The position numbers and the translations under genes were made by a program. From IMG/VR virus record IMGVR_UViG_3300030099_001770, positions 1 to 62,459 of that record: DNA of 62,459 nucleotides, one strand, 5' to 3'. Below the pieces are notes generated by a model. It was given only the letters and a program-made list of their open reading frames with translations. It was not told where the DNA came from and did not search any database. This DNA is from a virus. Its lineage: Duplodnaviria; Caudoviricetes. Shown here piece after piece: positions 20,949 to 39,391 of this stretch; the first letter of the stretch is position 1, and every line of letters begins with the position of its first letter.

Positions 20949-21007
20949 TATTTAGTAAAATTAAGTTTCCAAAAACTCATTTTTATATGCACTAGAATCT
21001 ATAAATA
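20949..21007. promoter_or_regulatory. divergent late promoters (gp18 on minus, HNH-like gene on plus)
   Basis: ACTAAATA on minus at 20949-20956; TATAAATA on plus at 21000-21007. Confidence 0.65.
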
Positions 21008-23437: not shown

Positions 23438-24058
23438 TTATTGGTCAGTAAAGTAAGTAAAATTGCAAAGAAGTTGACTACCAGCTTGGACTTGATTTCC
23501 AGTAACTGGATTCCACCCATTACCAGAAAGATTTCTTACCTCTATTCTATTAGTATTAACCATACATCTTCCTATTGTATAATCTCTAGTTCCAGTATTA
23601 AAACTTGTCAATGGGGCAGTTTGTGTGTATGAATTTGAAGTCTGGTAAAAAGTATATGGTAGTCCAGTTATATTAACTGCATCATCAGAAGCTGTCAAAG
23701 TTCCAGCACTATTGATAGATAATGTTATCGCAACAGAAACCATATTACCAATTTTTGTATACTTTCCAGCTCTATAATAATAAGTTGATACTGCACCACT
23801 ACCATCTGGGTCTTCTATTGTTGGTGTAAAGGTGCCTTCTTCATAATCGTCAATTACGTTTGAACTTCCACCAGAACCTATTGATACACCACCACTTGCA
23901 GTAATTAATCCAGTAACACCAAGAGTACCACCAACTGTAGAATTTCCAGTTAAGTTACCAGTTACGTTACCAGTTAAATTACCAGCAATAGTATTACTTG
24001 CAGTAATATTACCAGAACCAGTTCTTGTTGCGATTGTATCTACTTTAATTGTTGACAT
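23438..24058 (-). CDS. fibre tip / receptor-binding protein (DDYEEG type)
   Basis: N-tag MSTIKVDTI; DDYEEGTFTP...G.YTKIG..V...GLPY head. Confidence 0.7.
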   Translation of the reverse strand: MSTIKVDTIATRTGSGNITASNTIAGNLTGNVTGNLTGNSTVGGTLGVTGLITASGGVSIGSGGSSNVIDDYEEGTFTPTIEDPDGSGAVSTYYYRAGKYTKIGNMVSVAITLSINSAGTLTASDDAVNITGLPYTFYQTSNSYTQTAPLTSFNTGTRDYTIGRCMVNTNRIEVRNLSGNGWNPVTGNQVQAGSQLLCNFTYFTDQ

Positions 24059-24062
24059 ACTT

Positions 24063-24893
24063 TTATCCTAACATATGACCCCAGAATCTATTTCTGGTTG
24101 ATAGACCATCTGCTGTTCCTTCTAAGTTTTTATTTCCACTACTTATTTGTCTAATATCAAAGTAATCATTTGCAGAAGCATTTACAACAACACTTCCGTG
24201 TTTTTCATAATGACCACTAATACCAGACGGAGCACCACCTTCTAGAAAATCATAGTATCTAGAACCATTTTTACAAAGTGCAAATATACCAGCGATACCA
24301 GAATTATTACCATCACCCATTGCAATTCCAAATAAATATCTTCCAGCAACTGGACAAGTAAATCTTCCTACATTAGAACTAGTATCAAAATGATTTCCAA
24401 TATTGTGGTCTGTTGTTTGATATGTTACAACAGCATTTTGAGCAACTGTTTGGTTAGCAGTCATTCCTGCTCTGAATGATGGTTGTTTTCCCATACTAAT
24501 CTGACCAGCAGCCTGAACAACTAATGCATCATTTTGAACAGCAGCACTTGATGGTTGGTTAATGATAAATGCATTATTATCACCAGTTGATGTGTGTGTT
24601 GTTCTCAATGCAATTCTATTACTTACACCAGATTGCATTGCAAGTTGGGCAAGGTCTGTTCCAGAACCAAAGTTTAATCCAACAGTAGTTGATGCTGGAA
24701 TAGTAACGCCACCAGTTGCAGTTGTAGCACCAGTAACACCAAGTGTTCCACCGACTGTTGCGTTTGATGTAATTGCAGCTGTACCTTGTCCAGTAATATT
24801 TCCAGGCACCACAAGATTATGTCCAGAACCTAAACTTACGTTTCCAGAACCAGCTACGTTTTCAATAGTATCTACTTTAATCTTGGATGACAT
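24063..24893 (-). CDS. fibre tip with C1q-like head
   Basis: N-tag MSSKIKVDTI; PSF.A...N.G.HFD....FTCPVAGRYLF C1q/TNF-like signature. Confidence 0.75.
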   Translation of the reverse strand: MSSKIKVDTIENVAGSGNVSLGSGHNLVVPGNITGQGTAAITSNATVGGTLGVTGATTATGGVTIPASTTVGLNFGSGTDLAQLAMQSGVSNRIALRTTHTSTGDNNAFIINQPSSAAVQNDALVVQAAGQISMGKQPSFRAGMTANQTVAQNAVVTYQTTDHNIGNHFDTSSNVGRFTCPVAGRYLFGIAMGDGNNSGIAGIFALCKNGSRYYDFLEGGAPSGISGHYEKHGSVVVNASANDYFDIRQISSGNKNLEGTADGLSTRNRFWGHMLG

Positions 24894-24903
24894 TTAATTT
24901 TTC

Positions 24904-25170
24904 CTATTCACCAGTTTTTATTGAATCAGATACATTCTTTGCAGTATCAACTACTTTAAGTTCAAATGCTTGAGCGACTTGTGCATCAGTTCCCACTGCA
25001 AGTGCAACAGAATTTGCATTACAATGTTCAACTAACTTTGCAATAATTTCATCTTGTGCAATACGAGCACGATTATGAATAGCGTTATCACACCAATCTT
25101 GAACTGAATAAGCAGCATACTCAAGACACTTTACTTGTGTGTCTGATACTGTCACTTTAATCTCTGCCAT
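24904..25170 (-). CDS. small fibre-associated protein (probable chaperone)
   Basis: 88 aa, QDWCDNAIHNRARIA; inside cassette 1. Confidence 0.55.
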   Translation of the reverse strand: MAEIKVTVSDTQVKCLEYAAYSVQDWCDNAIHNRARIAQDEIIAKLVEHCNANSVALAVGTDAQVAQAFELKVVDTAKNVSDSIKTGE

Positions 25171-25192
25171 TATATTCTCCTATTAATTTTAT

Positions 25193-26005
25193 TTATTGTG
25201 CAATGTAACTGAATGAACCAGTAACAAATGTTATTTGTGCTGATTGATTTACCCCACCTTTGTAAAGTTGGAATTGTCCAGCTGCATTAAGAGAAAATAA
25301 ATTTCCTACTTGTGAACTTGGGTTTGCACCCCATATACCAACTGATTGTGTACTATTATGTGCAAAAGTAGAACCAGAAGTTGCTTCAACTTGAATACTA
25401 AAAGGCATACCTTCAAGAATAAGATTTCCAGTACCACTTCCACTATTTGAATTACCGTGGTCACAAACAAACCAACAATGCACTACTTTACCTATTTTAA
25501 TATAATCACCTTTTTTTGTTGTCCAGTTTGAAGTTCTAGCGTTGTTGTAAACATTCGGAGTCCACTGGCCTTCTTCATAATCGTCAAGGGCGTTTGCAGA
25601 AGTATAACCAGTTGCAAAACTAAGTGAACCACCAGTTCCTACGTTTACATGAATACCAGCGTTGTTTGCGTTTTGAATAGTTGCTCTTTGTGTACCAGCA
25701 CCAGACCCAGAACGAAAGTCAATAAACCCACCCAAGTTTCCAGAGTTTGTATCATTTAATTTTAATCCAGTTGTTGATGCAGTAGAATAATTTACTGCGA
25801 CTTGACCACCAGTACCACCATTTACACCTACGGTACTACCAAGAGTTGTTGAACCAGTTAATGTAGATGCACCAGTAACAGCAAGTGTTCCACCTACTGT
25901 TGCATTTGTTTGAACTGCAAGAGTATCACCAGACTCAATCTTGACTGTGTTTGCATCTCCACCAGATGTTTGTCCTGCTATTGTTGTGACTGTAATCTTA
26001 CTCAT
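25193..26005 (-). CDS. fibre tip / receptor-binding protein (DDYEEG type)
   Basis: N-tag MSKITVTTI; LDDYEEGQWTP...G.Y.KIG..V...GMPF. Confidence 0.7.
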   Translation of the reverse strand: MSKITVTTIAGQTSGGDANTVKIESGDTLAVQTNATVGGTLAVTGASTLTGSTTLGSTVGVNGGTGGQVAVNYSTASTTGLKLNDTNSGNLGGFIDFRSGSGAGTQRATIQNANNAGIHVNVGTGGSLSFATGYTSANALDDYEEGQWTPNVYNNARTSNWTTKKGDYIKIGKVVHCWFVCDHGNSNSGSGTGNLILEGMPFSIQVEATSGSTFAHNSTQSVGIWGANPSSQVGNLFSLNAAGQFQLYKGGVNQSAQITFVTGSFSYIAQ

Positions 26006-26007
26006 GT

Positions 26008-26340
26008 CTATACCACCGAAAGTTCACCATTGATTGTAAGTGTAACTCCACTCGCAATTGTCAACGGCCCAGCTGCTAATCCATTATTATTTGCATCAAT
26101 AGCAACACTGGTGTTTAGTTCGTTTTCATGGACACGAATAATATCTCCAGCACCACCAGATGTTTCTCCAAGAAACTTACCACCACCTAAACCAGATGCA
26201 CTTACTCTTTTAAATGCAGTTGCAGAGGCGTCAAAAACAATCAGTGTATCACCAGATGCAGACTTATCCACATCAGCGTTTGCAAGTGTTGTTCCAGAAC
26301 CTTGGATTGCACCATTTTTAATTTGAGTTAGTAATGCCAT
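26008..26340 (-). CDS. fibre adaptor (GPLT type), first gene of cassette 1
   Basis: C-terminus DIIRVHENELNTSV.I.....AGPLTIASGVTLTINGELSVV, paralogous to 28831 and 37293. Confidence 0.65.
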   Translation of the reverse strand: MALLTQIKNGAIQGSGTTLANADVDKSASGDTLIVFDASATAFKRVSASGLGGGKFLGETSGGAGDIIRVHENELNTSVAIDANNNGLAAGPLTIASGVTLTINGELSVV

Positions 26341-26341
26341 T

Positions 26342-26743
26342 TTATTTCCCTTTTAACATCTTTTGTAGTTCAGACGTAGAACCAACAAATAATGCGTTAG
26401 TAACATTCTTAGGTGCGTTATTTGGTACTTCTTTTAACTTTTGCATTTTAAGTTGTAACTCACCCAACTTTTCTGTTACGTCTGCAACATTCTTAATCAA
26501 TTGACCAGCAACCTCATAAGACCTTGGGTGTTCACTTTCTTTTGCAAGTTCAAGAATACCATCTATTGCATCTTGTCCTCTTTCAACCAACTGATAGAAA
26601 TTTCTACGTTGGTACTCATAATCATTGTCTACCTCTTTTGGAACTTTGACCTCTGGTAAAGTTACATTTGAGGTTGATGTTTCCACAACATCAGTAATAC
26701 CTAAAACATTATCAAGTACGTTTACACTGGTTTCTGAGGCCAT
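26342..26743 (-). CDS. gp16: terminase small subunit
   Basis: DYEYQR.N.Y.LVE.G..AI.GIL.LA.ESEHPR.YEVAGQLIK, NALFVGST.ELQKML. Confidence 0.93.
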   Translation of the reverse strand: MASETSVNVLDNVLGITDVVETSTSNVTLPEVKVPKEVDNDYEYQRRNFYQLVERGQDAIDGILELAKESEHPRSYEVAGQLIKNVADVTEKLGELQLKMQKLKEVPNNAPKNVTNALFVGSTSELQKMLKGK

Positions 26744-27135
26744 TTGACATTTTCCAAAACCCCATCCTTCAATGTTGCGTTCTTACCATCATTAGATGCT
26801 GGTAAATCACGAAGTGCTTGACGATAGGTTTTCATATTATCTGCCATGGTTACATCAGAAAGTGCATGAAAATCAGTTTCAACGAGTTTTGCATTTCTCT
26901 GTAAACGAAGTTCTACCATAGGTGCGGCTGCATCAATAGCAGTCATTTTGTCTGATACTTGTTTCCAAGTTACACCCCACTTTGAAGTATCAGCAGATTC
27001 TATTGCAGAACCACTTTCATCTGCACCAGTAACTTTTCTGAACATTTCATGGAACTCTGATTCCTTTGTAGGTTCTCCACGAAGTACCCACTCAGTAATA
27101 CCAAGTTCACTTAATGCGTCTGCGACTGTTGCCAT
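26722..27135 (-). CDS. tail fibre assembly chaperone (Tfa/XkdW-like)
   Basis: LR..RN..L..TD......YRQALRDLP...V.WP.KP. Confidence 0.75.
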   Translation of the reverse strand: MATVADALSELGITEWVLRGEPTKESEFHEMFRKVTGADESGSAIESADTSKWGVTWKQVSDKMTAIDAAAPMVELRLQRNAKLVETDFHALSDVTMADNMKTYRQALRDLPASNDGKNATLKDGVLENVKWPQKPV

Positions 27136-27184
27136 TTTGTTTTCTCCTTAGTTAATTCTTTTCTATATTTATAAGTGTATTTTA

Positions 27185-27706
27185 TCATAGTAAGTAAACT
27201 GCACAAAAAGCGTGTTCTGTTGAGTTAAGTAAATTACTGGCAGATGCATTATTGGAATGAATGTGAATAGTATCATTTGCACTACATTGAACTATAATAG
27301 TTGAACTTGCACCAACGTATGCAGATGGATTACTCGTACCAGCACCAAAACTATTGAGATTAGAGTGAGCACCACCATACCCAATGCCATTGTTATTTTT
27401 ATAAACTCTTGTATTTGGTGCATACTGATTTGCACCAGCTGTTCCAGAGCCGAGAATAGTGTGCGTCACTAGATAAACTCCAGCTACAGGCACAGTAAAT
27501 TTTCCAGTGCTTAAGTTGTACATATTAGTTGTATCAATTTTAATACTATTGTAAATAATAGTTCCACTTGTAGTCAGATTAGAAGCCATACCAGCAACTT
27601 GTGCAGCTGGTCTATTAGGGGTTAATACACGACCAGCACTATCAATTGTTAATCCAGTTGTACCACCAGTATGTTGAATTGTATTTACTTTTAATGTTGA
27701 TGCCAT
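27185..27706 (-). CDS. fibre tip with C1q-like head
   Basis: N-tag MASTLKVNTI; GKFTVPVAGVYLV. Confidence 0.72.
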   Translation of the reverse strand: MASTLKVNTIQHTGGTTGLTIDSAGRVLTPNRPAAQVAGMASNLTTSGTIIYNSIKIDTTNMYNLSTGKFTVPVAGVYLVTHTILGSGTAGANQYAPNTRVYKNNNGIGYGGAHSNLNSFGAGTSNPSAYVGASSTIIVQCSANDTIHIHSNNASASNLLNSTEHAFCAVYLL

Positions 27707-27717
27707 ATCCTATTTCC

Positions 27718-28305
27718 TTACTGTGCAACTTCTTGTGCTGTTAAAATACAAGAACCCTTTTCATTACCATGTCCTCTAGAATTAAAAACAATCGTTGTTT
27801 CACTTGGGTTATCAGTTTTACAATGAAGAGTGTAGGTAATTGCACTGGTTGTTGATGGACTATCTAAAACTTCAAACGAACACTGTTGACATTGCTCACC
27901 ATATCCAGCTGTACCACCAGAAATATTATTGGCTCCATAACTATTTTGGAAACTAAAAAATTTACTATTATGGGGTGCGATATTTGTGCTATCTCTCAAA
28001 AGAGTAAAGTCTTTCAAATTGTCTTGATTAGCAGATGAACTTTTTGTCTGACTAAACATAAAAGAAACCGTTAATAATATTTTTGATGTTGAAGATTTAG
28101 GAGTGATACTGACTGAAAGTCCAGTAGCTACAAATGAACTACTTGCAAAGGTAGCTTTGTTTCCAAAAGTTCCTTGAACAACTTGAAGGATTGTTCCAGG
28201 CACTCTAAAAGCACCTTCATCAGTTCCGACTAAGGTTTTACCAGTAGGAACTGTGATTGTTGAACCACTTGCAGTGTTTAGATTATTTACGAATAGAGTA
28301 CTCAT
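27718..28305 (-). CDS. fibre tip (TP-SKIL beta-sandwich type)
   Basis: N-tag MSTLFVNNL; PG.ILQ...SITPKS..SKIL...DSP.TTS.ITY...QEV. Confidence 0.7.
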   Translation of the reverse strand: MSTLFVNNLNTASGSTITVPTGKTLVGTDEGAFRVPGTILQVVQGTFGNKATFASSSFVATGLSVSITPKSSTSKILLTVSFMFSQTKSSSANQDNLKDFTLLRDSTNIAPHNSKFFSFQNSYGANNISGGTAGYGEQCQQCSFEVLDSPSTTSAITYTLHCKTDNPSETTIVFNSRGHGNEKGSCILTAQEVAQ

Positions 28306-28820
28306 CCTGCTATCTCCATTAAAACAATTCTGCCAGGCGCATTTTCATCAAAAGTAGCTCTGTTACCACCATTACTACCTTGACAACCTTGAGTCTTGTA
28401 TATACAAGCACTTGTTGTACTTGGAGTGTCTATCATTGTATATGAAACTGGAGTATAACAGTTAATACCAGAACCACCATAATCATAATAAAAAATGTTT
28501 CCATTTGTTGAACTTGAATCTTGATAAATTGCTGTAAATGCACCACCACCAATATTTCTCATAATTCTCCAACGAGCAGTTGCATAAGCACCAGTATTCC
28601 ATGCTTGGATATTTTGAGTACAAGTCACAAGAATTTTACTTGTTGCAAATTTAGGTGTAATGGATAATGTCAAGCCTGTATCCGTAAAGGTTGTATTTTG
28701 TACAGTTGTAGTACCAGTATGACTCGCATCTACTGATTGAATTACAACACCAGCAGGAAATTGAACATTTGCGGCTGTAGTTGCACCTTGAATCTCATCT
28801 ACTATTAATGTTGAACCCAT
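28302..28820 (-). CDS. fibre tip (TP-SKIL type)
   Basis: N-tag MGSTLIVDEI; ITPKF.TSKIL...DTP.TTS...Y...MEI. Confidence 0.7.
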   Translation of the reverse strand: MGSTLIVDEIQGATTAANVQFPAGVVIQSVDASHTGTTTVQNTTFTDTGLTLSITPKFATSKILVTCTQNIQAWNTGAYATARWRIMRNIGGGAFTAIYQDSSSTNGNIFYYDYGGSGINCYTPVSYTMIDTPSTTSACIYKTQGCQGSNGGNRATFDENAPGRIVLMEIAG

Positions 28821-28830
28821 TCTTTATCCC

Positions 28831-29139
28831 CTATACAATCGTAAGATTTCCGTTGACTGTAAGATTTACAGTTCCAGAAGTTGATACTGTCAAAGGCCCA
28901 GCGCATGATGCGTTATCACCAGATGCAATAGTTACACTAGTGTTTAGAGTCGCTTCATTTACACGAAAGATGTCACCCTTTTTAGATGTTTCTGAAGTTG
29001 AACCATTCTCACCTTGATAAAATCCCTCACCAGCAGAAAGACCAGTGGTCTTTGCTTGAGTAACAGCTCCACTTGCTATATCGGCAGTTGCGATTGTGCC
29101 GTCTGTAATAGAACGAGAAATTACTTTTCTGATTGCCAT
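28831..29139 (-). CDS. fibre adaptor (GPLT type), first gene of cassette 2
   Basis: N-tag MAIRKV; C-terminus DIFRVNEATLNTSVTI...AGPLTV...LTVNGNLTIV. Confidence 0.65.
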   Translation of the reverse strand: MAIRKVISRSITDGTIATADIASGAVTQAKTTGLSAGEGFYQGENGSTSETSKKGDIFRVNEATLNTSVTIASGDNASCAGPLTVSTSGTVNLTVNGNLTIV

Positions 29140-29160
29140 GTCTTAATCCTTTTCTATTAT

Positions 29161-29973
29161 TTATGCGTCTTCTTTATCCGTACCACTCACTGGGTCAAAA
29201 TTCTTTGCATCTTCAAAGAAAGATGTAGTCTCATTAAATCCAAAGTTATCATCTGCATCAGCAGTGATTGGAGTTGGTGCGACTGTATATCTTTGTTCTC
29301 TCTTTGGTGCATTGACAGGCATATCTGTATATTGGTCAACTTGTACTTGTTTAATAACTTTCTGGTCTGTAACTGGCCCATACAGATAAAATTTTGCAGT
29401 AAATGACATTGTATATGTAAGAACTCTTCTATCCTCAAAAGAACCTTCATACTCATCTGAATACGTTACTCCAGTGAGAATAATTGGAACATCTCTTGTT
29501 GTTCCCATTGAGGTATTATCATTTAATGTAATTGTATAATCTGGTTGAAAGAATGGTAAAATCTGTTCTACAATCTGAAGCGCATCATCAGACTGTTTTG
29601 CCATGACCACTAATTCAAAATCCATATTATATGGAACAGGCATAAACTGTGATGACATAGTTTTACCACTGTCAGAATTATTTGTTTTCTTAAATTTTTG
29701 AATAGAGTTTAGTTTACGAGAGGGGTCATATGCAATACCAGAAATCTCAAAACCAATTCTGGGTAAAGTTAATGCAACCTTTTTATTAAGGTTGGGGTCT
29801 TCTCTAAGTCTTGTTAAGAACTTTTGTTTTGGGCCATACGCAAGTGGTACTTTCATACTTTGTGTTACTGCACCAGAACTATTTGTTCTGACAATGTTAA
29901 TATTATTAAAAATAGTACCAAAGGCCACTACAACCTTTCGCATAGTTTCATGGTAAAATTGTTGTCCTAACAT
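29161..29973 (-). CDS. gp15: tail sheath stabilizer / completion protein
   Basis: FYHET.RK.V..FG..FNNI, VPLAYGPKQKFL, QIVEQILPFFQP. Confidence 0.96.
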   Translation of the reverse strand: MLGQQFYHETMRKVVVAFGTIFNNINIVRTNSSGAVTQSMKVPLAYGPKQKFLTRLREDPNLNKKVALTLPRIGFEISGIAYDPSRKLNSIQKFKKTNNSDSGKTMSSQFMPVPYNMDFELVVMAKQSDDALQIVEQILPFFQPDYTITLNDNTSMGTTRDVPIILTGVTYSDEYEGSFEDRRVLTYTMSFTAKFYLYGPVTDQKVIKQVQVDQYTDMPVNAPKREQRYTVAPTPITADADDNFGFNETTSFFEDAKNFDPVSGTDKEDA

Positions 29974-29974
29974 A

Positions 29975-30811
29975 TTATCTTCCTATATCACCAAATGGAT
30001 TTGACTCTGTGAAATCAATGATATTATCATCTTGAGTTTCAAAGAAATCATTCATTGCGTTTTCATCTATTGTGTCAACTACATAACCTTCTTGTATTAT
30101 ATAGTCACCAGTTTCAAGAACAATCTGGTCACCACCAGTTTCATTCTCACCAATAAGATTATCAGTGCTATCCTCTTGTTCTATATTACCAGTACCGTCT
30201 TCTAGTTCAAGACCCTCATTGTATGTAGTACTACTTGACTGTTCCATAGTAATCTGGTATACTAACTGGTCTAGAGAATTATCTGTTTCAATTGCATCAA
30301 TCTCTGTAATACCAGTATCAAGGTCTTCACTAGAGTATTCAAAAGTTTTACACTTTAATTTAAAAGCTGGAACATTATGTACTTGATAGAATGGGTCATC
30401 ATGGTCTACAAAAGTAATCTCAAATATTTTCTTTACTTTTGGAAAGTAAACTAAGTCACCTTCATTCGGTCTAGTCTTTACAATTAAATTAGAATCATGT
30501 GAAACTAATTGTTCAAATCTTCTTCTTGAAACTACAAAGGTTACGTCCTCATTCATCTGTAAACCAAACTTGGACATGATTTCTTTTTCACCCTCATATC
30601 CCTCTACATTTTCAAAGTACATTTCGATAAGGTAAGCATCACCAAACTTAGAAAGAGTATCCTCTCCAAAAAGATTATCCTCTTTTACTAATGTTCTTGG
30701 AATATAGAAAACATCTTGACCATAAATCTTTAACTGCTCTATCATTAAATCTTCATAGAGAGTTTGCTCTGGTCGTGTTCCAGTATCAAAATATACGTTT
30801 GTCGGCATCAA
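29975..30811 (-). CDS. gp14: neck protein
   Basis: EQ.L.EDL..E..KIYG.DV.Y.PR, RPNEGDL.YFP, DF.ESNPFG. Confidence 0.96.
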   Translation of the reverse strand: MMPTNVYFDTGTRPEQTLYEDLMIEQLKIYGQDVFYIPRTLVKEDNLFGEDTLSKFGDAYLIEMYFENVEGYEGEKEIMSKFGLQMNEDVTFVVSRRRFEQLVSHDSNLIVKTRPNEGDLVYFPKVKKIFEITFVDHDDPFYQVHNVPAFKLKCKTFEYSSEDLDTGITEIDAIETDNSLDQLVYQITMEQSSSTTYNEGLELEDGTGNIEQEDSTDNLIGENETGGDQIVLETGDYIIQEGYVVDTIDENAMNDFFETQDDNIIDFTESNPFGDIGR

Positions 30812-30812
30812 A

Positions 30813-31628
30813 TTATCCTATCATGTAGTTGGGTGGTAGTTCATACGCAAGTTGAATTTGTTCTTCTAACTTTTCTATGTCTGCCTGAGCCTCCTCAAAT
30901 AGTTTTGCACCATTTAGAGTTACACCACCTAACATTTGTACACCTTCAAATTTAGAGAGATTTGAACCCCACTGTCTTTTAATTAGTGCAGTTGCATATC
31001 TCTTTAAATAAATATCGTTAAATATATCTGTGTAAGTTGTTGGGTCTAATTTACGGTAACATTCAATAATTATAAAGTCATCAGCTTTTACATCTTGATT
31101 CCAATCCATGTCTATATATAATCTATTTTGATGTTGATTAAAACGAATAGGTTTTTCACCAACAAGGATATGGTCTAGAAAATCTAAATGTTTCATTGTC
31201 ATTTCATAATGAATAATAGATTCACTACTAAAATCATACAAATCATTTAGACGTAATTGGTATCGTACATCAAACATATTTACAGTATGTTTATCTGTAA
31301 AATCAAAAACTTTTACAACTGATAATACACTTTCTGGAATAGGAATAAAACCATTTCCTTCTAACCAAGTTGCAGTAATACTATTATCTGCTGTATCAGT
31401 CGCAGTTGCAGAAGTGTTTGTTATAGCTCTATCTATTTCTGATTGTGTTATTTTATGTTTTAAATACATTCTCTCAACACCATCATAATGGTATTGTGCA
31501 AAATATTGTAATGCATCATCAATTCTATCATCTACTTGGTCATCATCAACATTAATGTCAATTACAGGCTTACCAAGAGTTCTAAGACAATGTTCTTTGA
31601 GAGCAGCTTTTGTATTTGGACTTGCCAT
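30813..31628 (-). CDS. gp13: neck protein
   Basis: LR.LG.PVI.INVDDDQ..DRID.ALQ, K.QWG.NL.KF.G....GGVT.NG. Confidence 0.97.
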   Translation of the reverse strand: MASPNTKAALKEHCLRTLGKPVIDINVDDDQVDDRIDDALQYFAQYHYDGVERMYLKHKITQSEIDRAITNTSATATDTADNSITATWLEGNGFIPIPESVLSVVKVFDFTDKHTVNMFDVRYQLRLNDLYDFSSESIIHYEMTMKHLDFLDHILVGEKPIRFNQHQNRLYIDMDWNQDVKADDFIIIECYRKLDPTTYTDIFNDIYLKRYATALIKRQWGSNLSKFEGVQMLGGVTLNGAKLFEEAQADIEKLEEQIQLAYELPPNYMIG

Positions 31629-31646
31629 ATTATCTTTCCTTTACTC

Positions 31647-31654
31647 TATTTATA
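31647..31654 (-). promoter_or_regulatory. late promoter for gp13
   Basis: TATAAATA in the intergenic gap. Confidence 0.7.
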
Positions 31655-31655
31655 A

Positions 31656-33326
31656 TTATCCAAGTGCAGTAGCCATTGCAATTGAAAAACCAGTTGTTGC
31701 ACCAGCAGAAGTTTGTGTTGTTCCATCTCCAAATTCTATACCATTTGTTCCCACAACAACCTTACCAGAACCATTTGGTGTAAGATTAATATCTCTATTA
31801 GAAGTAGATATTATACTATGAGTAACTACATCTAGGTTGCCTCCAAGTTGTGGAGAACTATCATCTGAAATATTTTGAATACCAGCACCAGCTAATGAAC
31901 CTACAGATGCAAACGCAAGATTACCAGAACCGTCTGTTTTTAGAACTTGTCCAGCGTTACCATCTGCTTGTGGATGTGATAATCCATCAATAATAACTTT
32001 ACCAGAACCATTTGGTGTAATTGCAATATTACCATTTGATGCAGAAACGATTGCGTTGCCATTTACATCTAAGTCACCTCCAAGTTGTGGCGAAGTATCG
32101 TCTACAACATCAGATGATGTTATATCACTTGTAAGTGCAACAGTACCAGATGAGTTGGGTAATGTGATTGTTCTATCTGCTGTTGGGTCTGCAACTGTCA
32201 AAGTTGTTTCGTGTGCATCAGCAGTTGCACCTTCAAAACGAAGTGTGTTTCCAGTATTAAGAAATAAACCATTGTTTTTTATTCTTGCAACAATCTCATT
32301 TGACCCACCAGATACAACTGCAAATTCTAGTAAACCATCTTCACTACCAGCAGATGCATCATCTATCTTACCACTAATCTTTGCGTATGTATGTGAACTA
32401 CCACCATCATCATCACCTTTAAATGCAAGTTGTCCAAGATAGTCTGCATCAGCAGGACTTGAACTATCACGAACTAAATCAATTGTAGGAGCTGCGCTAG
32501 AACCAGCATCAGTAGAGGTAAGTGTAAGATTACCAGTGGTAGAGATGTTACCAGTACCAGTAATATTGTTTGAGTTTAAATCAAGGTTGCCTCCCAGTTG
32601 AGGCGAAGTATCTTCAACAACATTGTTAATAGATACTGCTTGAACTCTTGCAGTTGTGTGATAAAGATTACTAGAACCTTCAGATAAATCATCAGTAGTT
32701 GCAGCTGCTATTCTTGCATCTGCTCTTGCATTTGTAAAATAAAGATTGGAAGAACCCTCTGATAAATCGTCAGTATCGAAACCAAATAAACTTCTTGTAC
32801 CAGTGGTTGCAGCCCAACCCATATTTCCATGTGCAGAACATTGGTAGAATAAAACTGGTGGAGTAGTATCACCAATAACTAATTGTGTATATGCACCAGA
32901 ACTGCCAGGCGTTCCGTTAGTTGTTACGCCTGAAGTATATGAAGTTGATTTATTTACATCAAGATAGAATCTAAAAGGATGGCCTGAGTTACTTGAATCG
33001 CTCTGGTCAAACCGATATGTATTTTTTGGAATAAGTTTTAGATAAGGTGAAAATATACCATTAAGTTTATAACCATTACTAGACCCAACACCGTGATAAG
33101 GGTGTGAACTATCTTTTGTTGCAACAGTAACTTTAAATGTTACAACATTTACATCAAAGTCTGTCGCATAGTGATTTGCAAGTGTAATAACAGTACTACT
33201 ATCATTACGAACATACAGTTTTTTATCAACTGTATTAAGTGCAACTTCACCCTCAATTAAATCAGAGGTATCTGGTATGACTGATATTGTGTTACTGCGT
33301 TTAAGTTTTATTGGTGTTGTAGCCAT
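31656..33326 (-). CDS. fibre protein with Mtd_N-like N-terminus, cupredoxin-like domain and C-terminal ALG tag
   Basis: IKLKRS...L.EGEVALN..D.KL; GHPF...YQCSAHGNMG; D.SPQLGG.LD x3; TDDLSEGSSNLY x2; ends GFSIAMATALG. Confidence 0.75.
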   Translation of the reverse strand: MATTPIKLKRSNTISVIPDTSDLIEGEVALNTVDKKLYVRNDSSTVITLANHYATDFDVNVVTFKVTVATKDSSHPYHGVGSSNGYKLNGIFSPYLKLIPKNTYRFDQSDSSNSGHPFRFYLDVNKSTSYTSGVTTNGTPGSSGAYTQLVIGDTTPPVLFYQCSAHGNMGWAATTGTRSLFGFDTDDLSEGSSNLYFTNARADARIAAATTDDLSEGSSNLYHTTARVQAVSINNVVEDTSPQLGGNLDLNSNNITGTGNISTTGNLTLTSTDAGSSAAPTIDLVRDSSSPADADYLGQLAFKGDDDGGSSHTYAKISGKIDDASAGSEDGLLEFAVVSGGSNEIVARIKNNGLFLNTGNTLRFEGATADAHETTLTVADPTADRTITLPNSSGTVALTSDITSSDVVDDTSPQLGGDLDVNGNAIVSASNGNIAITPNGSGKVIIDGLSHPQADGNAGQVLKTDGSGNLAFASVGSLAGAGIQNISDDSSPQLGGNLDVVTHSIISTSNRDINLTPNGSGKVVVGTNGIEFGDGTTQTSAGATTGFSIAMATALG

Positions 33327-33346
33327 GAGGCAATCTCCCTAGACTA

Positions 33347-35032
33347 CTAACTAAATGTTCCACCGTCCACCGCTGTTGCAAACGCAATAGTATCAGAACT
33401 TGCAGTATATGTCAAGATACCATCATTAGAACCACCACCGTCTAATGCAGATAATGTATTAGCGGAGTTTGCAACTAGGACTGAACCTTTTGCGATTGAA
33501 GATAAACCAGTACCACCGTTTCCTACTGGTAATGCACCAGTTACTTTTGCAGTAAGGTCAATTGACCCTGCTAACATTGCATTTGTAATACCAGATGCTT
33601 TTACTCTTAATGCATCTGAGTTAACTTCTATAGAAGAATCATCAACTCCAACATTCAATGTATTACCAGATTTAGTAAGGGCTGCACCAGCAATAACTTG
33701 ACCAGCACCAGAAAATTGTGTGAATACAAGTGCAGTAGTTCCAACTGTTACTGACCCATCATTGGTCATAACAAAACCGTTGTCTGCGTTAACAGTACCT
33801 TCCTCTACAAAGAAGAATGTTCCACCAGTTACTTCTGAATCTGCGTCAAAATCTGTTGCACGAGTCGGAGCACCACTTGCATTAACTGTATAGATACCAT
33901 TTTCTGAACCAGTTGATTGGTCTTTGATAAGTATTCTATCGTTAGTTGCAAGAGTAACACCATCAACTGTTTGACCATTTGCAAAGGCAGAAGATAAAGT
34001 TCCGTTTGCAGTTGTAGCAACTCTTACTGAATTCTTAACATCAAGACCTTGTAGTTGTGCGTCAACATAGTTCTTGTTAGCTGCGTCTGTTCCACCAGTT
34101 GGTGTCGCAACACTTGTTATTCTTGCACTTGAAACATCAACTGTTCCAGTTCCATTTGGGTCTAAATTTAAATTACCATTTGTGTTTGTTGTGGAAATAG
34201 TATTACCATCAATAGTAATATTATCAACGTCAAGAGATGTAATACCATTCAAATCTGTTTGTGTTGCACCAAGAGCAACTGCATCTGAACCAATCGTAAT
34301 AGAACTATTAGCAAGTTTTGCATTTGCAATTGAACCAGCTAACATTGCATTTTCTACTGAACCGTTTGCAATAGTTAATGCACCATTATTTGCTACAGTT
34401 ACATCTCCAGATATTGCAGAGTAAATATATTTTTTAACTCTTGTTAATGTAGTTTTTCTATTTGTTCCACCAGCACCATTATCTACAATAAGTAAATCTG
34501 CATCTACAAGGTCTTCACCAATATCAGTTCCACCATCTATTTCCAGAGCTGATAATGCAAGAGTTCCAGTTAAATCTCCTAATCCAAGAGTACCAAATGA
34601 TAATGTTCCAGAACCATTTGTTTTGAGAACTTCTCCACTATTACCATCAGACCCAGGCAGTGTTAATGCAAGATTACCACCTAAAGAGTTTGGTGCTTTT
34701 AATTGTACATGATGAGTACCATTATTAGTACCTTCTTTTAATTCTATTGAACCACCAGTTGTTGCGTTGTTACCTACGATTAAATCATCAACTGCTTTGT
34801 TTCCGTCAACTGTAATTGCACTACCAGCAGTTAGAGTACCTTGAACATGGTCTAACATATCGGAGAAAAACTTACCACCGATTACATCTACAGTTGAACC
34901 ATCACCAATAAAAAGTCTATCACCTAAATTCGACTGAGTACCAGTTCCAAAAGTTACTGCAAGTTCACCAGCAGATAATGATGATGGAGCTGAAGTACCA
35001 GTAGACCTCTTAATTTGAATTGTTGTTGCCAT
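33347..35032 (-). CDS. long fibre protein
   Basis: IQIKRS...L.AGELA N-terminus; DAANKNYVD; DRIL.KDQ....ENGIY; ends VDGGTFS. Confidence 0.75.
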   Translation of the reverse strand: MATTIQIKRSTGTSAPSSLSAGELAVTFGTGTQSNLGDRLFIGDGSTVDVIGGKFFSDMLDHVQGTLTAGSAITVDGNKAVDDLIVGNNATTGGSIELKEGTNNGTHHVQLKAPNSLGGNLALTLPGSDGNSGEVLKTNGSGTLSFGTLGLGDLTGTLALSALEIDGGTDIGEDLVDADLLIVDNGAGGTNRKTTLTRVKKYIYSAISGDVTVANNGALTIANGSVENAMLAGSIANAKLANSSITIGSDAVALGATQTDLNGITSLDVDNITIDGNTISTTNTNGNLNLDPNGTGTVDVSSARITSVATPTGGTDAANKNYVDAQLQGLDVKNSVRVATTANGTLSSAFANGQTVDGVTLATNDRILIKDQSTGSENGIYTVNASGAPTRATDFDADSEVTGGTFFFVEEGTVNADNGFVMTNDGSVTVGTTALVFTQFSGAGQVIAGAALTKSGNTLNVGVDDSSIEVNSDALRVKASGITNAMLAGSIDLTAKVTGALPVGNGGTGLSSIAKGSVLVANSANTLSALDGGGSNDGILTYTASSDTIAFATAVDGGTFS

Positions 35033-35043
35033 TTATCTATTCC

Positions 35044-35355
35044 TTAAAAACTACCACCATTAAAAACAAGTGTACCAGTAGATGTATCTAGGTTGTTTCT
35101 TGCAACAAATTTTTGGTCACTTGAACGAAACTGTAATAGAGCTCCATCTGCAATACTAGTTGCATCTACATCTGCAGCTATTAAGATTCTGTTTTCTGAA
35201 GAACCAGCCACACCTTGTGGGCCTTGTGGCCCAGGCACTGCAACTCTTGTTACAACTAATTCATTACCTTGTGATACTGAACCAGAAACTTGAGAGACAC
35301 TTCCTATTCTTGCGTTTAGTCCAGCATTATCATTTATTGTACCAGATACAGACAT
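35044..35355 (-). CDS. short fibre linker with collagen-like segment
   Basis: PGPQGPQG; DVD....DGALLQF....KFVA; ends FNGGSF. Confidence 0.6.
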   Translation of the reverse strand: MSVSGTINDNAGLNARIGSVSQVSGSVSQGNELVVTRVAVPGPQGPQGVAGSSENRILIAADVDATSIADGALLQFRSSDQKFVARNNLDTSTGTLVFNGGSF

Positions 35356-35361
35356 ATTTGT

Positions 35362-35694
35362 TTACCTTGTTACACTTGGATTGACTGTGACTTGACCTTC
35401 AACTACTCTGGTCTTTGTTCCACCAGATGCTGTTATGAGAACATCATAAACGAACCGTCCTGCTTCTAGAGCAGTCGTTTGAGTTGGTGATAAAGATATT
35501 GTGATTTCACCAGATGATGCGTTTGAAATTGTTGCTGTAAAAGCAGTTGCAGTAGATGATAAAAAGGTTTTTCTTATTTGTGCAGCTACTGAATAACCAG
35601 ATAAATTTACTGCATCACCATTTGCATCCGTTACTGTTACTGTGGTTGTAAAAGTCGCACCTTGGTCTATAAATATATTTGAAATACTTGCCAT
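35362..35694 (-). CDS. BppU-like Ig-fold structural protein (fibre root)
   Basis: N..IDQGATF......D..G...NL.GY...AQIRK...GRFVYDV...RVVEG...V.P.VT. Confidence 0.7.
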   Translation of the reverse strand: MASISNIFIDQGATFTTTVTVTDANGDAVNLSGYSVAAQIRKTFLSSTATAFTATISNASSGEITISLSPTQTTALEAGRFVYDVLITASGGTKTRVVEGQVTVNPSVTR

Positions 35695-35714
35695 TCACAC
35701 AGTCTCCTTTTTAG

Positions 35715-35722
35715 TATTTATA
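35715..35722 (-). promoter_or_regulatory. late promoter
   Basis: TATAAATA upstream of an AAGGAG RBS. Confidence 0.7.
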
Positions 35723-35739
35723 AGGAAAATGTGTTAGAG

Positions 35740-36240
35740 TTATCCGATTAAATATGCAACCCAGTTACTACCACCATATGAAACACTACCATCAACATAA
35801 TTATGTTTAACCTCCACATAATCATTTTGTGCAAGTCTTATAAGAGCTACGTTAGTTGCTGTAGTGTGGTCATTTCCAAACACCGTATTTGCAAGTTGAT
35901 TACTTATCCCAGCACCATAAACAGAACCATTTTTATAAAATGCGTGTTGCACATCTCTTGCAGTAGTGTTTGCACCAGCGAAAATACCAATTGAACAAGT
36001 AAGATGGTATAAACCAGCTACTGGTGCTTCAAGGCGTTGATTTGATACTGACCATAAATTTTGTTCATTGAGAGGTACAGTACCCCATGTTGGTTTATTG
36101 TTTGTTGCAATTGTTCCACTTGGTGCAGTAAGATGAAAACAAGGAATTACTGGTTGTGTTACAATACCACTACTATTAATACTGATTGCAGTGTTTGAAT
36201 TTGCGTGGTCTTGAATTGTTCCGACTTTTAATGTACTCAT
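35740..36240 (-). CDS. fibre tip with C1q-like head
   Basis: N-tag MSTLKVGTI; APVAGLY...L.QNDYVEV...YLIG. Confidence 0.72.
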   Translation of the reverse strand: MSTLKVGTIQDHANSNTAISINSSGIVTQPVIPCFHLTAPSGTIATNNKPTWGTVPLNEQNLWSVSNQRLEAPVAGLYHLTCSIGIFAGANTTARDVQHAFYKNGSVYGAGISNQLANTVFGNDHTTATNVALIRLAQNDYVEVKHNYVDGSVSYGGSNWVAYLIG

Positions 36241-36244
36241 AACT

Positions 36245-36766
36245 TTATCCTAAGAAACTCATTTGCCACCAACTATGATAAGCATTTGGTTGTGGTGTAA
36301 ATGTACTACTTTGACAAAAACCATGCATTGTAATTACATCACCTACGGAAAGTCTTTTTATAATTGAACCTTGACAAAATGCGCTTGCACCACCTTGGTT
36401 ACCAAGTGCGTCTTTTCTGACCCCCCCTATAAAAACAGCAAGTTGATTAACATTACTTGTAGTAGAATATAAAGAGCCACTAATATGCCAAAGACCACCA
36501 CAATCTGCTGGAATAGTATAGTTGTTATTTGAAGTATTAAAGGCACTCATATTATCTTCACCATCAAATACATGACTTGAACTAAAAGTATTGAATAATA
36601 TTCTATCACCAGTATTAATAGTTGTAGCAGTGCTTATTCCAACTTTTAACATAGGAATTTTTCCACGAACCATAACACCGTCACTATTGATAGTAGCAGC
36701 TGTTACAGATGAAGACCTTTTAATAGTACTTACATCTTGAATAGTATTTGTGATTAAAGTACTCAT
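36245..36766 (-). CDS. fibre tip with divergent C1q-like head
   Basis: N-tag MSTLITNTI; YTIP...GGLW...L.VGD.I...FLG. Confidence 0.65.
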   Translation of the reverse strand: MSTLITNTIQDVSTIKRSSSVTAATINSDGVMVRGKIPMLKVGISTATTINTGDRILFNTFSSSHVFDGEDNMSAFNTSNNNYTIPADCGGLWHISGSLYSTTSNVNQLAVFIGGVRKDALGNQGGASAFCQGSIIKRLSVGDVITMHGFCQSSTFTPQPNAYHSWWQMSFLG

Positions 36767-37296
36767 TGTGAAATCTCCATAGCAGTAATGCTAAAACTAT
36801 CATCTGCGTTTGCCAGTATTCTTCCATATCCACTACCAGCTAACCTTGCAAGATATATTTTATAAATTAATGCACTTGTAGTTGCAGGCGAATCTAAATG
36901 TTGAAAAGAAGCCTGATGCAGTGTTGTAGCATTTGCATGATTCATATATCCAATATGTCTACTGACTTGACCAGAATTTAATCCAGAAACACCAGAGAAA
37001 GAACCACCAGCGACACTTTTATATAACGCAAGTTTAACTGCGTTAGCAAAAACTCCTTGTTGATAAAAACCTTGTGCATGAAAAGTAACAAGAATTTTAC
37101 TAGATGAAAATTTAGGCGTTATTGATACAGCAGCTGCTGTTGCACCATAAGTTGTTGAGGATATTGAAAAGTTAGTGTGAGTGCCATCTCCATTGTAACC
37201 TTGAAAGGTTTGTGTTTGTAAAACTGAACCAGCAGGCAATTTAACACTTGCAGCTGTGGTTTGTCCTTGAATTGTATCTACTGATAAAGTACTCAT
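36763..37296 (-). CDS. fibre tip (TP-SKIL type)
   Basis: N-tag MSTLSVDTI; ITPKFSSSKIL...DSPATTS...Y...AMEI. Confidence 0.7.
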   Translation of the reverse strand: MSTLSVDTIQGQTTAASVKLPAGSVLQTQTFQGYNGDGTHTNFSISSTTYGATAAAVSITPKFSSSKILVTFHAQGFYQQGVFANAVKLALYKSVAGGSFSGVSGLNSGQVSRHIGYMNHANATTLHQASFQHLDSPATTSALIYKIYLARLAGSGYGRILANADDSFSITAMEISQ

Positions 37297-37697
37297 ATGA
37301 TTGCTAACCTTCCAGTGGATGTGATAGTAAGAGTTGTTCCGTTTGCAATTGTCAATGGGCCTGTAGTAGACGCATTGTTATTAGCTGCAATTGTTACATT
37401 ACCAGTAGTTGCATTTAGATTTACACGAAAAAGATTATCTCTACCAGATGCGTTTCCATTTACAGAACCATCTTTTGCAATATAGTATCCAGCACCCAAC
37501 GCAACTGCATCAGCAATCTTATCTGCTGTTACAGCGTCATCAGCGATTTGTGCAGTTGTAATAGCGTTATTTGCAACATCATCTGCAACAATTACATCAG
37601 CACCAATCTTTGCAGAATTAACTGCATTATCAGCAAGGTCTGCTGTTGCAATCGTTCCGTCTAGGATACCTTTTGTTGTAATCTTTGAAAGTGCCAT
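37293..37697 (-). CDS. fibre adaptor (GPLT type), first gene of cassette 3
   Basis: N-tag MALSKI; AVT.AKI.D repeats; C-terminus LFRVN......VTI.....GPLTIANGTTLTI...GRLAII. Confidence 0.65.
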   Translation of the reverse strand: MALSKITTKGILDGTIATADLADNAVNSAKIGADVIVADDVANNAITTAQIADDAVTADKIADAVALGAGYYIAKDGSVNGNASGRDNLFRVNLNATTGNVTIAANNNASTTGPLTIANGTTLTITSTGRLAII

Positions 37698-37894: not shown

Positions 37895-38998
37895 TTATAA
37901 CTCCCCATCTGCTTCTATACCAGCATTTGTATTATTATTTCTATCAAGTCTACAACCATCACCAGTAGACCCACCTATACTATTATGGTCTAATCTAAAG
38001 TAACCACAAACTGTACCCATTTCTCTATTTCCAAAAGCAAGTGATGAGGTTGCACTAGCGTCAGAAACCATATTAGCAACTCTCATACCAGTTGTACCAG
38101 AAAGTGTTAATGTTGGTGGAGTTCTCATTTCAACTGATAATTGTTTGAAGAAAAATGTTCTTGTGCCACTTGACCTATGTCCTACTGCGATACCAGTATA
38201 AGCAGAACCAACGCCAGTTTCTCCAGCAAATTGTTGGAAATAGCGTTGACAAAGCGAAAGCTCTTCTGCAAAGGAGCGGTGTTCAAAATCTGAAGCAGTA
38301 TCGCCGACTTCAAGTTGGACGCCTGTAAGATAAAAATTGTTGGCTGTGTCATCAAACACATTCACTTGTCCAACTGCACGTTTGGTTGCATCATTATGCC
38401 AAGTGTTATCTGAATGTGTACCACTATTATAAGTAGCACTAGCAGCTAACCACCATGCAAGTTGTATACCTATACCATTATCATTGTTTAAAGCAGTTGT
38501 TTGATAACCATCAAAAGTCAATGTAACCTTTTGCCAAGTATTAGCAGATGCGATTGTATACTGTCGAGAATTAAAGTAATTAACATCACCATGATATAAT
38601 TCAACAATATGGGTGCCCGTTTTGGGTGACTTTACCCAAAACTGAAGTGTAAGTTTTTTTGCACTAGATGTTCCATAAAGAAGATGTTGTAAATTTTGTC
38701 CTTCTATTTTCTGTCTAATCATAGCATAATGACCAGAACCAGACATATTGCCTGCTGTTGTGACATCAACTTTTTGAGATGATGAAAATCCATTACCAGT
38801 TGGAACATCAGTATCTTGTGAGAGAGTAGAATTTGCTCCCCCTGCGGCTGCAAACTGATACCTATCTGCACCACCATATTTACCAGCGGCGCTCGTCACT
38901 GTGCCTCTCTGAGCCACTTGCATAGCACCATTAATAATAAGATTCCTACGACCACTTACGTTTTCCGTACCTCTTGATTTTACTTTAATTAACGTCAT
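37895..38998 (-). CDS. fibre tip with carbohydrate-binding-like domain (probable start MTLIKV at 38998)
   Basis: RRNLIINGAMQVAQRG...TGVQLEVG..AS.FEHRSF.EEL.LCQRYF. Confidence 0.72.
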   Translation of the reverse strand: MTLIKVKSRGTENVSGRRNLIINGAMQVAQRGTVTSAAGKYGGADRYQFAAAGGANSTLSQDTDVPTGNGFSSSQKVDVTTAGNMSGSGHYAMIRQKIEGQNLQHLLYGTSSAKKLTLQFWVKSPKTGTHIVELYHGDVNYFNSRQYTIASANTWQKVTLTFDGYQTTALNNDNGIGIQLAWWLAASATYNSGTHSDNTWHNDATKRAVGQVNVFDDTANNFYLTGVQLEVGDTASDFEHRSFAEELSLCQRYFQQFAGETGVGSAYTGIAVGHRSSGTRTFFFKQLSVEMRTPPTLTLSGTTGMRVANMVSDASATSSLAFGNREMGTVCGYFRLDHNSIGGSTGDGCRLDRNNNTNAGIEADGEL

Positions 38999-39387
38999 TC
39001 TGGTTTCTCCGGCCACTTAACATCTTCAAGTGACTTATAGTCTTTTGTAATATCACGAAGTGCTTGTCTGTATGTTTTCCAATCTACATCATTTGATAGA
39101 GTTACATCTCTATTCTGTGTCCAATCTGATTCTGCAAGAATACTATTACGAACTTCTCTTAATTGTTTTAGAGGTTCAGCAGCAACTAACTCATCATACT
39201 TTGCTTTTACTTTTGTCCAAGTAACACCAAAATCATCTGGATTTGTTGACCTAATAATACTTCCACTTTTATCATGACCAGTAATTTTTACAAAACTTTT
39301 TTCAAATTCTGTTTTTGATGTTGGTGTACCTTCTAATTCAAAATTAGAAATTCCTAACTCTATTAATGCTTGACTCATTGTTGCCAT
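38995..39387 (-). CDS. tail fibre assembly chaperone (probable start MATMSQ at 39387)
   Basis: LR..RN..LAESDW...W..YRQALRDIT...VKWP.KP; paralog of 26722. Confidence 0.75.
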   Translation of the reverse strand: MATMSQALIELGISNFELEGTPTSKTEFEKSFVKITGHDKSGSIIRSTNPDDFGVTWTKVKAKYDELVAAEPLKQLREVRNSILAESDWTQNRDVTLSNDVDWKTYRQALRDITKDYKSLEDVKWPEKPE

Positions 39388-39391
39388 GTCT

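Follow-up and report, generated by a model that had tools for sequence, protein, structure and literature searches.

Three gene cassettes of a T4-like marine myovirus may encode modular fibers in which one C-terminal docking domain carries several receptor-binding tips

Results

Three cassettes pair a fiber stub gene with three tip genes

The viral sequence IMGVR_UViG_3300030099_001770 of IMG/VR, which is 62,459 nucleotides (nt) long and is referred to here in its entirety as the window, contains three gene cassettes that we call A1, A2, and A3. Each is headed by a gene for a small adaptor, or putative fiber stub, and contains three genes for small proteins, here called tips, that begin with a similar short tag and end in heads of different kinds. 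Comparison with related phages suggests that a cassette could encode a modular fiber in which a domain at the C terminus of the stub, the dock, holds separately made tips by their tags. Judged by its gene content, the window is from a T4-like marine myovirus: the large terminase (21471-23117) is 80.3% identical to its homolog in Methylophilales phage Melnitz, with 99% of the length covered, and Pfam and PHROG matches place the T4 core structural genes gp13, gp14, gp15, gp16, and gp17 all in order. The cassettes are located at three plastic sites within this core gene order. A3 (37697-35740) is found upstream of gp13 and two long fiber genes, A2 (29139-27185) lies between gp15 and a fiber chaperone gene plus gp16, and A1 (26340-23438) lies between gp16 and gp17. 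The span from 23438 to 37697 also has unrelated core genes, namely, gp13, gp14, gp15, the small terminase gene, the two long fiber genes, and the chaperone gene.

All of the relevant genes are on the minus strand, and the twelve open reading frames (ORFs) of the cassettes were all found where an earlier reading of the window, made from its sequence alone (the sequence-only reading), had placed them. The stubs are 110 amino acids (aa) long in A1 (26008..26340, between the small and large terminase genes, with 79 related loci), 102 aa in A2 (28831..29139, directly after gp15, with 629 small homologs), and 134 aa in A3 (37293..37697). The A3 stub combines N-terminal fiber repeats, which have PHROG tail-fiber matches, with the C-terminal dock and belongs to no Pfam family. 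Cassette genes are tightly packed, with overlaps of 4 nt or gaps of 2 to 22 nt; the 4-nt overlaps join the A3 stub to A3 tip 1, A3 tip 1 to tip 2, and A2 tip 1 to tip 2. The composition proposed by the sequence-only reading, an adaptor and three tips, stands, with the amendment that A1 also holds an ORF of 88 aa between tips 1 and 2.

A short, conserved tag resembling a docking peptide begins all nine tips, and the tags are also conserved in relatives. Nine tips with a common N-terminal tag had been predicted, and a six-frame scan of ORFs of at least 40 aa recovered the tag pattern in all of them and in a tenth ORF, as a weak match at the N terminus of the A3 stub. In A1, tip 1 (25193..26005, 270 aa, tag MSKITVTTI) has its own shaft and a DDYEEG head that starts at about residue 136 to 149, with a C-terminal match to phrog_29288; tip 2 (24063..24893, 276 aa, tag MSSKIKVDTI) has a shaft and a C1q head from about residue 135 (Pfam C1q, 33.7 bits; cutoff, 23.7); and tip 3 (23438..24058, 206 aa, tag MSTIKVDTI) has a short shaft and, by sequence motif, a DDYEEG head from about residue 65. 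In A2, tip 1 (28302..28820, 172 aa, tag MGSTLIVDEI) and tip 2 (27718..28305, 195 aa, tag MSTLFVNNL, phrog_6942) have heads with the motif TP..SKIL, and tip 3 (27185..27706, 173 aa, tag MASTLKVNTI) has a C1q head (Pfam C1q, 30.9 bits; cutoff, 23.7). In A3, tip 1 (36763..37296, 177 aa, tag MSTLSVDTI) has a TP..SKIL head matching phrog_6942, a tail fiber C terminus family, and the heads of tip 2 (36245..36766, 173 aa, tag MSTLITNTI) and tip 3 (35740..36240, 166 aa, tag MSTLKVGTI) are C1q-like by weak calls. The basis of these two calls is phrog_15750, matched by tip 2 at an E value of 6.4e-6 with no Pfam match and by tip 3 together with a subthreshold Pfam C1q match (E value of 0.0086, 16.7 bits). 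Only the A1 tip 2 and A2 tip 3 heads exceed the gathering score of PF00386 (23.7). The mix of heads read earlier from the sequence was therefore secure for DDYEEG, SKIL, and two C1q heads and weak for the C1q heads of A3.

The dock is a widespread domain at the extreme C terminus of fiber proteins

The three stubs have a C-terminal domain of about 60 residues in common. Their alignment (38 to 39% identity to the first stub, 20 invariant columns, mostly within the last 50 residues) bore out the earlier proposal of three paralogous adaptors of 102 to 134 aa sharing a C terminus. The pattern that had been written for this terminus contained the right residues at the wrong spacings, the real ones being 7, 9, 5 to 7, and 1 to 3 rather than 6, 6, 4, and 2. 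Within the window, a six-frame scan that took in every ORF of at least 40 aa detected the motif GP[LIV]T[IV] in the three stubs only.

When 1.84 billion proteins were searched with a profile built from the 62 C-terminal residues (alignment A7), it matched 8108 cluster representatives at an E value of ≤1e-3 and 1661 at ≤1e-10. In 148 of the best 150 profile matches, the match ended at the C terminus or one residue short of it; of the two exceptions, one was a tandem duplicate and the other had a C-terminal extension. The dock was likewise flush with the C terminus in 101 of 102 proteins in the IMG/VR loci and in 57/57 proteins in the second sample of the census described below. The shortest carrier is 59 aa and the longest 1012 aa; long carriers fall into PHROG tail-fiber, minor-tail, and tail-spike families and lack a recognizable head. 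No Pfam family covers the domain, searches of PDB sequences with the A3 stub and with the dock profile returned nothing beyond chance, and Pfam and PHROG gave no match to a T4gp10-like branching domain on the three stubs or on nine longer dock-bearing proteins. The stretch GPLTV-turn-VTLTV in the dock looks like a beta-hairpin; immunoglobulin (Ig) matches for it were at chance level only. When the 102-aa A2 stub was modeled as a monomer, the model was poor and free of strands (predicted local distance difference test [pLDDT] score, 60.2), which fits a domain that would fold only inside an assembly. By sequence comparison, then, the dock is a real and widespread domain restricted to the extreme C terminus of fiber proteins.

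Most cassettes in relatives contain three tips

To count tips per stub in relatives, we mapped 83 sources. Besides the window and three named phages, these were IMG/VR loci, for which the best 80 of 305 relatives were taken and proved to represent 79 distinct loci. A first classifier, which undercounted through start-codon and tag-offset misses, gave exactly three tips in 55/66 complete cassettes and never more than three; a looser version overcounted by taking in two conserved accessory genes. In the refined classifier, alternative starts were permitted, membership in a head family was taken into account, and the two accessory genes were screened out by profile. With it, 59 of the 62 complete cassettes had three tips (52 of the 55 that are non-identical). 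The remaining three were Melnitz, with two tips and one upstream; L034, with one; and L048, with four by automatic counting, one of which is probably a false positive. A second sample of 56 new loci, from which ten re-fetched contigs had been removed, was scored with the classifier frozen; here, 40/42 complete cassettes had three tips, and the remaining two had two each. Among the 104 complete cassettes, no count above three was credible.

The three-tip layout also prevailed when stubs were clustered at 70% identity: 13 of the resulting 16 clusters included a complete cassette, and three was the majority count in 10 of these 13 by the first classifier. The background rate of the relaxed tag was 40 in 338 genes away from stubs. 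A scan of bacterial genomes yielded three loci only, one with three tips (L083), one with two (L085, on a 494-kb contig of a Rhodospirillales metagenome-assembled genome), and one that is probably the same contig as a locus already sampled (L084 and L057, respectively).

Among named phages, Melnitz has one stub between gp15 and gp16, followed by two SKIL tips and then a chaperone gene. The podovirus HMO-2011 has two dock-bearing proteins followed by tagged small proteins, and Nostoc phage Nsp-JY18 has a 422-aa fiber that ends in a dock and is followed by three small tagged genes. In podovirus-type cassettes (L032, L041, L046, L072, L077, and L086-L150), two conserved genes that do not encode tips, of about 155 and 122 aa, always follow. 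From these sequence counts, the dock layout is far beyond chance, and three tips per dock is a strong rule. The expectation of the sequence-only reading, about three tagged genes for each gene with the GPLT motif, was thus upheld in both samples; its wording of exactly three holds as a strong rule and not as an absolute one, given relatives with one or two tips.

Tags are specific to position, and heads are exchanged

We tabulated the tags of 59 non-identical three-tip cassettes by position. The first 10 or so residues of a tip are specific to position 1, 2, or 3 within each cassette family. For positions 1 to 3, respectively, they read MSKI[ST]VTT, M[ST]SKIKVDTIE, and MST[IL]KVDTI in A1-type cassettes; M[GA]STL[TI]VD, MSTLFVN, and MAST[LI]K[VI] in A2-type cassettes; and MSELRADTIT, MSEIKVDTLTGK, and MAGKIIAD.LEH in podovirus-type cassettes. 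In several myovirus-type families, the residue that varies within the tag is usually Lys in tips at position 3 and hydrophobic in those at position 2. Across 11 stub clusters, same-position tag identity was 666, compared with 631.9 ± 12.6 after position shuffling, and 59 of 5000 shuffles reached 666. This likeness by position may stem from common ancestry in a three-tip cassette, from function, or from both. C1q, SKIL, DDYEEG, and other heads, meanwhile, were found at almost any position and in almost any combination. L082 has its position-2 and position-3 heads swapped relative to the window, with the tags in place, and in HMO-2011 and L042-type contigs, position 2 is taken by a different head and a chaperone. 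Free combinatorial mixing of the nine tips of the window, as suggested earlier, is doubtful, as the tags are specific to cassette and position and covary with the end of the dock.

The head of A2 tip 1 could be assigned a fold. An AlphaFold2 model of this SKIL protein had a mean pLDDT score of 85.1, and its first 20 residues (59 to 65) were the sole low-confidence part; in the model, then, the tag has no fold of its own. The predicted head forms a jelly roll of ten strands, for which the best PDB match by Foldseek was Photorhabdus PLTL (9ib7_B; E value of 1.2e-5, template modeling scores of 0.55/0.68). Further matches included the N-domain of Burkholderia BC2L-C (6tid, 2wq4), Chlamydia Pgp3 in its TNF-like C-domain, and 4jdo. 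By this model, the fold of the SKIL head is that of trimeric TNF-like lectins. In a viral structure library, the same fold was found in small proteins and at the end of cyanophage tail fibers of 580 to 940 aa, including those of S-CAM7. SKIL and DDYEEG heads are also fused to ordinary shafts, as in 39392-40258 of the window and L034:31-876. PDB sequence searches with a DDYEEG tip and a SKIL tip gave nothing above chance, the DDYEEG tip matched only unnamed viral clusters in the ESM Atlas, and Pfam found no collar domain in the tips of the window.

The position of the head along the chain differs between cassettes. The A1 heads start at about residues 136, 135, and 65, a difference of 71 residues that reaches up to 163 in relatives. 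In A2 and A3, head starts are spread over 13 to 14 residues, which makes the chains there roughly collinear.

The end of the dock is inherited together with the tips

Breakpoints in related contigs connect the end of the dock with the tags. In L032, DNA homology to cassette A2 of the window stops 14 nt after the GPLT codons, and a podovirus-type set, complete with the two non-tip genes that follow such cassettes, replaces the last 17 residues of the dock and all three tips together in what is otherwise a myovirus. In L028 and L013, homology passes through the dock into the first 24 or so codons of tip 1, is lost within the head, and returns over the tag of tip 2. Across 50 cassettes, tag divergence had a partial correlation of 0.50 with divergence in the last 17 or so residues of the dock, compared with 0.22 for the 36 residues before GPLT; in both cases, the observed value was reached in 0/2000 permutations. 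Finally, a single ORF (L035:1443-2471) fuses a stub at about residue 85 to tip 1 at about residue 21, and both the end of the dock and the tag are gone. A link between stub and tip is supported indirectly by these sequence observations, because the dock is C-terminal and the tag N-terminal, the two are adjacent, the dock end is co-inherited with the tips, and the fusion removes both.

Neighboring genes and other fiber proteins of the window

The core genes around the cassettes were assigned by Pfam and PHROG as gp13 (30813-31628), gp14 (29975-30811), gp15 (29161-29973), and the small terminase gene, gp16 (26342-26743), all on the minus strand like the following three genes. Cassette A2 is closed by a tail-fiber assembly chaperone gene (26722..27135; PF16778 Phage_tail_APC, 46.8 bits; cutoff, 26.6) that has an equivalent position in relatives, and many cassettes end with a PF16778-type chaperone gene; a second one in the window is at 38995-39456 (53.2 bits; cutoff, 26.6). 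The 88-aa ORF of A1 (24904..25170) has no Pfam or PHROG match. It is kept in most A1-type cassettes, a chaperone-like gene takes its place in L029 and L031, and it possibly has a role in assembly. After cassette A3, a 110-aa gene (35362..35694) matches phrog_1084 (E value of 3e-31) and phrog_3304 (E value of 7.5e-27); its family is annotated as L-shaped tail fiber assembly, and its product is a possible assembly factor. The T4 late-promoter word TATAAATA is not enriched in the window (8 seen versus 5.9 expected). Three of its minus-strand copies are intergenic near the cassettes, none of them directly upstream of any stub gene.

Other fiber-like proteins of the window have recurrent ends of their own. 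Those at 46582-47040, 43137-43742, and 31656-33326 (minus strand) end in a common motif, ..IA[LMI]A[TI]ALG, as do Melnitz fiber proteins, and this terminus may be a second kind of C-terminal connector. Three head proteins (43974-45182, 40465-41511, and 37895-39016) share the head start GRRN.(I/V)ING....AQRG and have AEL or GEL as their last residues. A short M.L.K(I/V) N terminus is present in two of these proteins, which are next to PF16778-type chaperones. A repeated gene pair consists of a small MAN(N/T)F.. protein and then an M[PSA][FY]IG.. fiber protein (45963-46571 with 45182-45961 and 42794-43129 with 41843-42784), and 43137-43742 and 39392-40258 are also listed with these pairs. In HMO-2011 and L053, the dock sits on the MPYIG-type protein of this pair; the dock is therefore one of several interchangeable fiber ends.

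A 2266-aa protein (47263-54063) is a homolog of a 2127-aa Melnitz protein and occupies the place where the available text of the pelagimyophage papers puts VrlC, a gp7 substitute. The fiber-rich stretch from this gene to gp13 corresponds to the "host recognition cluster" described there. Elsewhere in the window, a baseplate-wedge-like protein (60660-62453) ends in about 16 serines followed by GY, and the sole plus-strand ORF near the terminase gene (21013-21309) encodes a Cys-rich protein of 98 aa, with a copy of TATAAATA just upstream at 21000-21007.

Discussion

The arrangement of these genes suggests that each cassette could constitute one modular multi-tip receptor-binding fiber. The adaptor would be a fiber stub anchored to the virion through its N-terminal part, and its last 60 or so residues would form the docking domain. 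The three downstream genes would encode separately made receptor-binding tips, each with an N-terminal plug of 10 to 20 residues, in some cases a shaft, and a lectin-like head of the C1q, TNF-like jelly-roll, or DDYEEG type. The plugs would bind the dock noncovalently, probably through its last two or three beta-strands. Heads would be exchanged through recombination at the conserved plug sequences, such that host recognition could be retooled with the virion-attached part untouched. From the sequence comparisons above, we infer physical binding between dock and tag, the residues in contact, the stoichiometry, and the site of the stub on the virion.

We consider it somewhat probable that the cassettes encode such a plug-and-socket fiber, with each stub carrying up to three tips. 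The geometry that we would prefer is a three-way branch in which every tip is an independent trimer. We favor tips that fold and oligomerize by themselves because head starts are unequal, heads are placed freely among positions, and one- and two-tip cassettes have a normal dock. The trimeric-lectin fold of the SKIL head and the presence of such heads at the ends of ordinary long fibers point the same way. A stub trimer with three sites that takes up to three tips is preferred because the number three is near-constant, a fused head almost never follows the dock, and the genes are coupled. This is the proposal of the sequence-only reading, partly supported by comparative genomics, with exactly three tips relaxed to at most three.

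Several points weigh against this branched fiber or limit what the counts can say about it. The mapped loci are related phages picked as best matches, so their counts document a conserved layout and are not independent events; the second sample is a single broad podovirus-type family; and the tip classifier was altered twice after missed tips were examined, before it was frozen. L034 has one tip, a normal dock, and no remnants of other tips, and two tips are found in L027/L032, L112/L121, and L085. One of the three Melnitz tips, with a C1q head, sits just upstream of the stub. The support for contact between dock and tag is entirely genomic, and genomic adjacency alone could yield a signal of co-inheritance. 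The L035 fusion is on one 2.7-kb metagenomic contig, and among the 11 longer homologs found there was no stub-tip fusion, the six that were examined all ending in a dock. Further, a branch with equivalent sockets leaves the three distinct genes and their position-specific tags unexplained.

In a bolder variant, dock and plug would be a standard connector common to marine myoviruses and podoviruses, and three non-equivalent plugs would load each stub trimer with exactly one copy of each of its three tips, fixed in their arrangement. We regard this variant as rather unlikely. If true, it would amount to a programmed tri-specific fiber end with heads of unrelated folds and to a new break of three-fold symmetry.

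Other architectures account for parts of the same evidence. In the simplest physical model, with one free edge strand per dock chain, a single homotrimeric tip would sit end-on on each stub trimer, three plugs on three dock chains as in the T4 gp36-gp37 joint, and the three genes of a cassette would compete, giving mosaic virions. This coaxial arrangement would suit the hairpin-like GPLTV-turn-VTLTV stretch, the trimeric TNF-like fold of the heads, the one collinear chain of the L035 fusion, and the occurrence of one- and two-tip cassettes. We nevertheless regard it as rather unlikely: the near-constant three, with nothing credible above it in 104 complete cassettes, is left unexplained; there is no account of a dock with no fused head after it in 306/309 proteins; and coupled genes that look equimolar would produce three times more tip chains than dock chains. 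In another model, a heterotrimeric tip, one chain from each gene joins a trimeric dock through three non-equivalent plugs. The near-constant three, the conservation of tags by position across stub clusters, the similar-sized paralogs in fixed order that make up podovirus-type tips, and the precedent of virophage DSLV2 in the available part of its description (PMC12724248) all agree with such a tip. Chains whose heads start 71 residues apart in A1, and up to 163 in relatives, cannot align along their length, however, and a heterotrimer fits poorly with unrelated head families in almost any combination, with natural one- and two-tip cassettes that keep an unchanged dock (L034), and with lineages such as HMO-2011 and the L042 type that have a different head and a chaperone at position 2. 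We judge it unlikely overall. For A1 in particular, one full-length coaxial heterotrimer was considered and set aside as unlikely, the shaft lengths being unequal.

Least probable, in our estimation, is that the C-terminal domain is only a nucleus for trimerization or folding, like the foldon of fibritin, and that the tagged proteins are mere neighbors attached at the baseplate or neck. The C-terminal location is that of a foldon, and modeling the stub as a monomer gave no good fold. Against a foldon-like role, the long headless podovirus fibers end in a dock that is always followed by tagged heads, the end of the dock is swapped jointly with the tips, and L035 puts a peptide bond in place of the dock end and the tag.

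The long tail fiber of T4 (gp34-gp35-gp36-gp37) also consists of separately encoded fiber segments held by noncovalent end-to-end joints and assembled with the help of chaperones. It is unbranched, with one gene per segment, and no sequence similarity to the cassettes was found. Published systems are compared here as described in the available parts of the cited papers, and the closest working analog among them is a branched receptor-binding system. In podophages of Klebsiella (KP32, K11, and KP34), a first receptor-binding protein (RBP) carries a branching domain that binds a conserved docking peptide on a second one (PMC6872550, PMC13352976). These branched RBPs resemble the cassettes in having an anchored docking module, neighboring RBPs with a short conserved N-terminal peptide, and exchangeable heads. 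They differ in that the dock described here is an unannotated C-terminal domain of about 60 residues without a T4gp10-like match, the anchor is headless, three secondary proteins are the rule, and the heads are small and lectin-like rather than depolymerases. DSLV2 has a tail heterotrimer made from three consecutive genes whose positions are conserved across relatives (PMC12724248). It likewise has three adjacent, positionally conserved small tail genes of about 170 to 190 aa, linked to marine phage fibers; its proteins, however, are gp37-tip and collar-like and collinear, whereas the cassettes have no collar domain, have heads of different families and unequal A1 shafts, and include a separate stub with a dock.

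C1q-domain proteins encoded beside the tail fiber of marine podophages have been proposed to be receptor binders (Mizuno et al. 2014, PMC3909814). These are also small and fiber-adjacent, and they combine a conserved N terminus with a hypervariable head; the dock, a plug common to the N termini, and the one-plus-three rule are not described in the available text of that paper. The pelagimyophage (PMC7029224) and Melnitz (PMC9004378) genome papers report a hypervariable host-recognition cluster and, in the text available, do not describe these cassettes. Our literature search, which covered passages of main text, found no published description of the dock domain or of the one-plus-three rule.

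The near-constant three poses a precise structural question. The models predict ratios of stub to tip chains of 3:3 for alternative coaxial tips, 3:1:1:1 for a heterotrimer, and 3:3:3:3 for a branch. A dock of 60 residues with plugs of 10 to 20 residues is also a compact natural scaffold with which to study several receptor binders that share one fiber. Host recognition is poorly understood in abundant ocean phages, including the relatives of phages of OM43, SAR11, and SAR116, and the genes concerned are mostly annotated as hypothetical. If the dock-and-plug model is true, the hypervariable islands around their fiber genes would reflect the swapping of heads at conserved plugs, and a common rule of this kind would let receptor-binding genes be recognized from sequence in thousands of uncultured phages.

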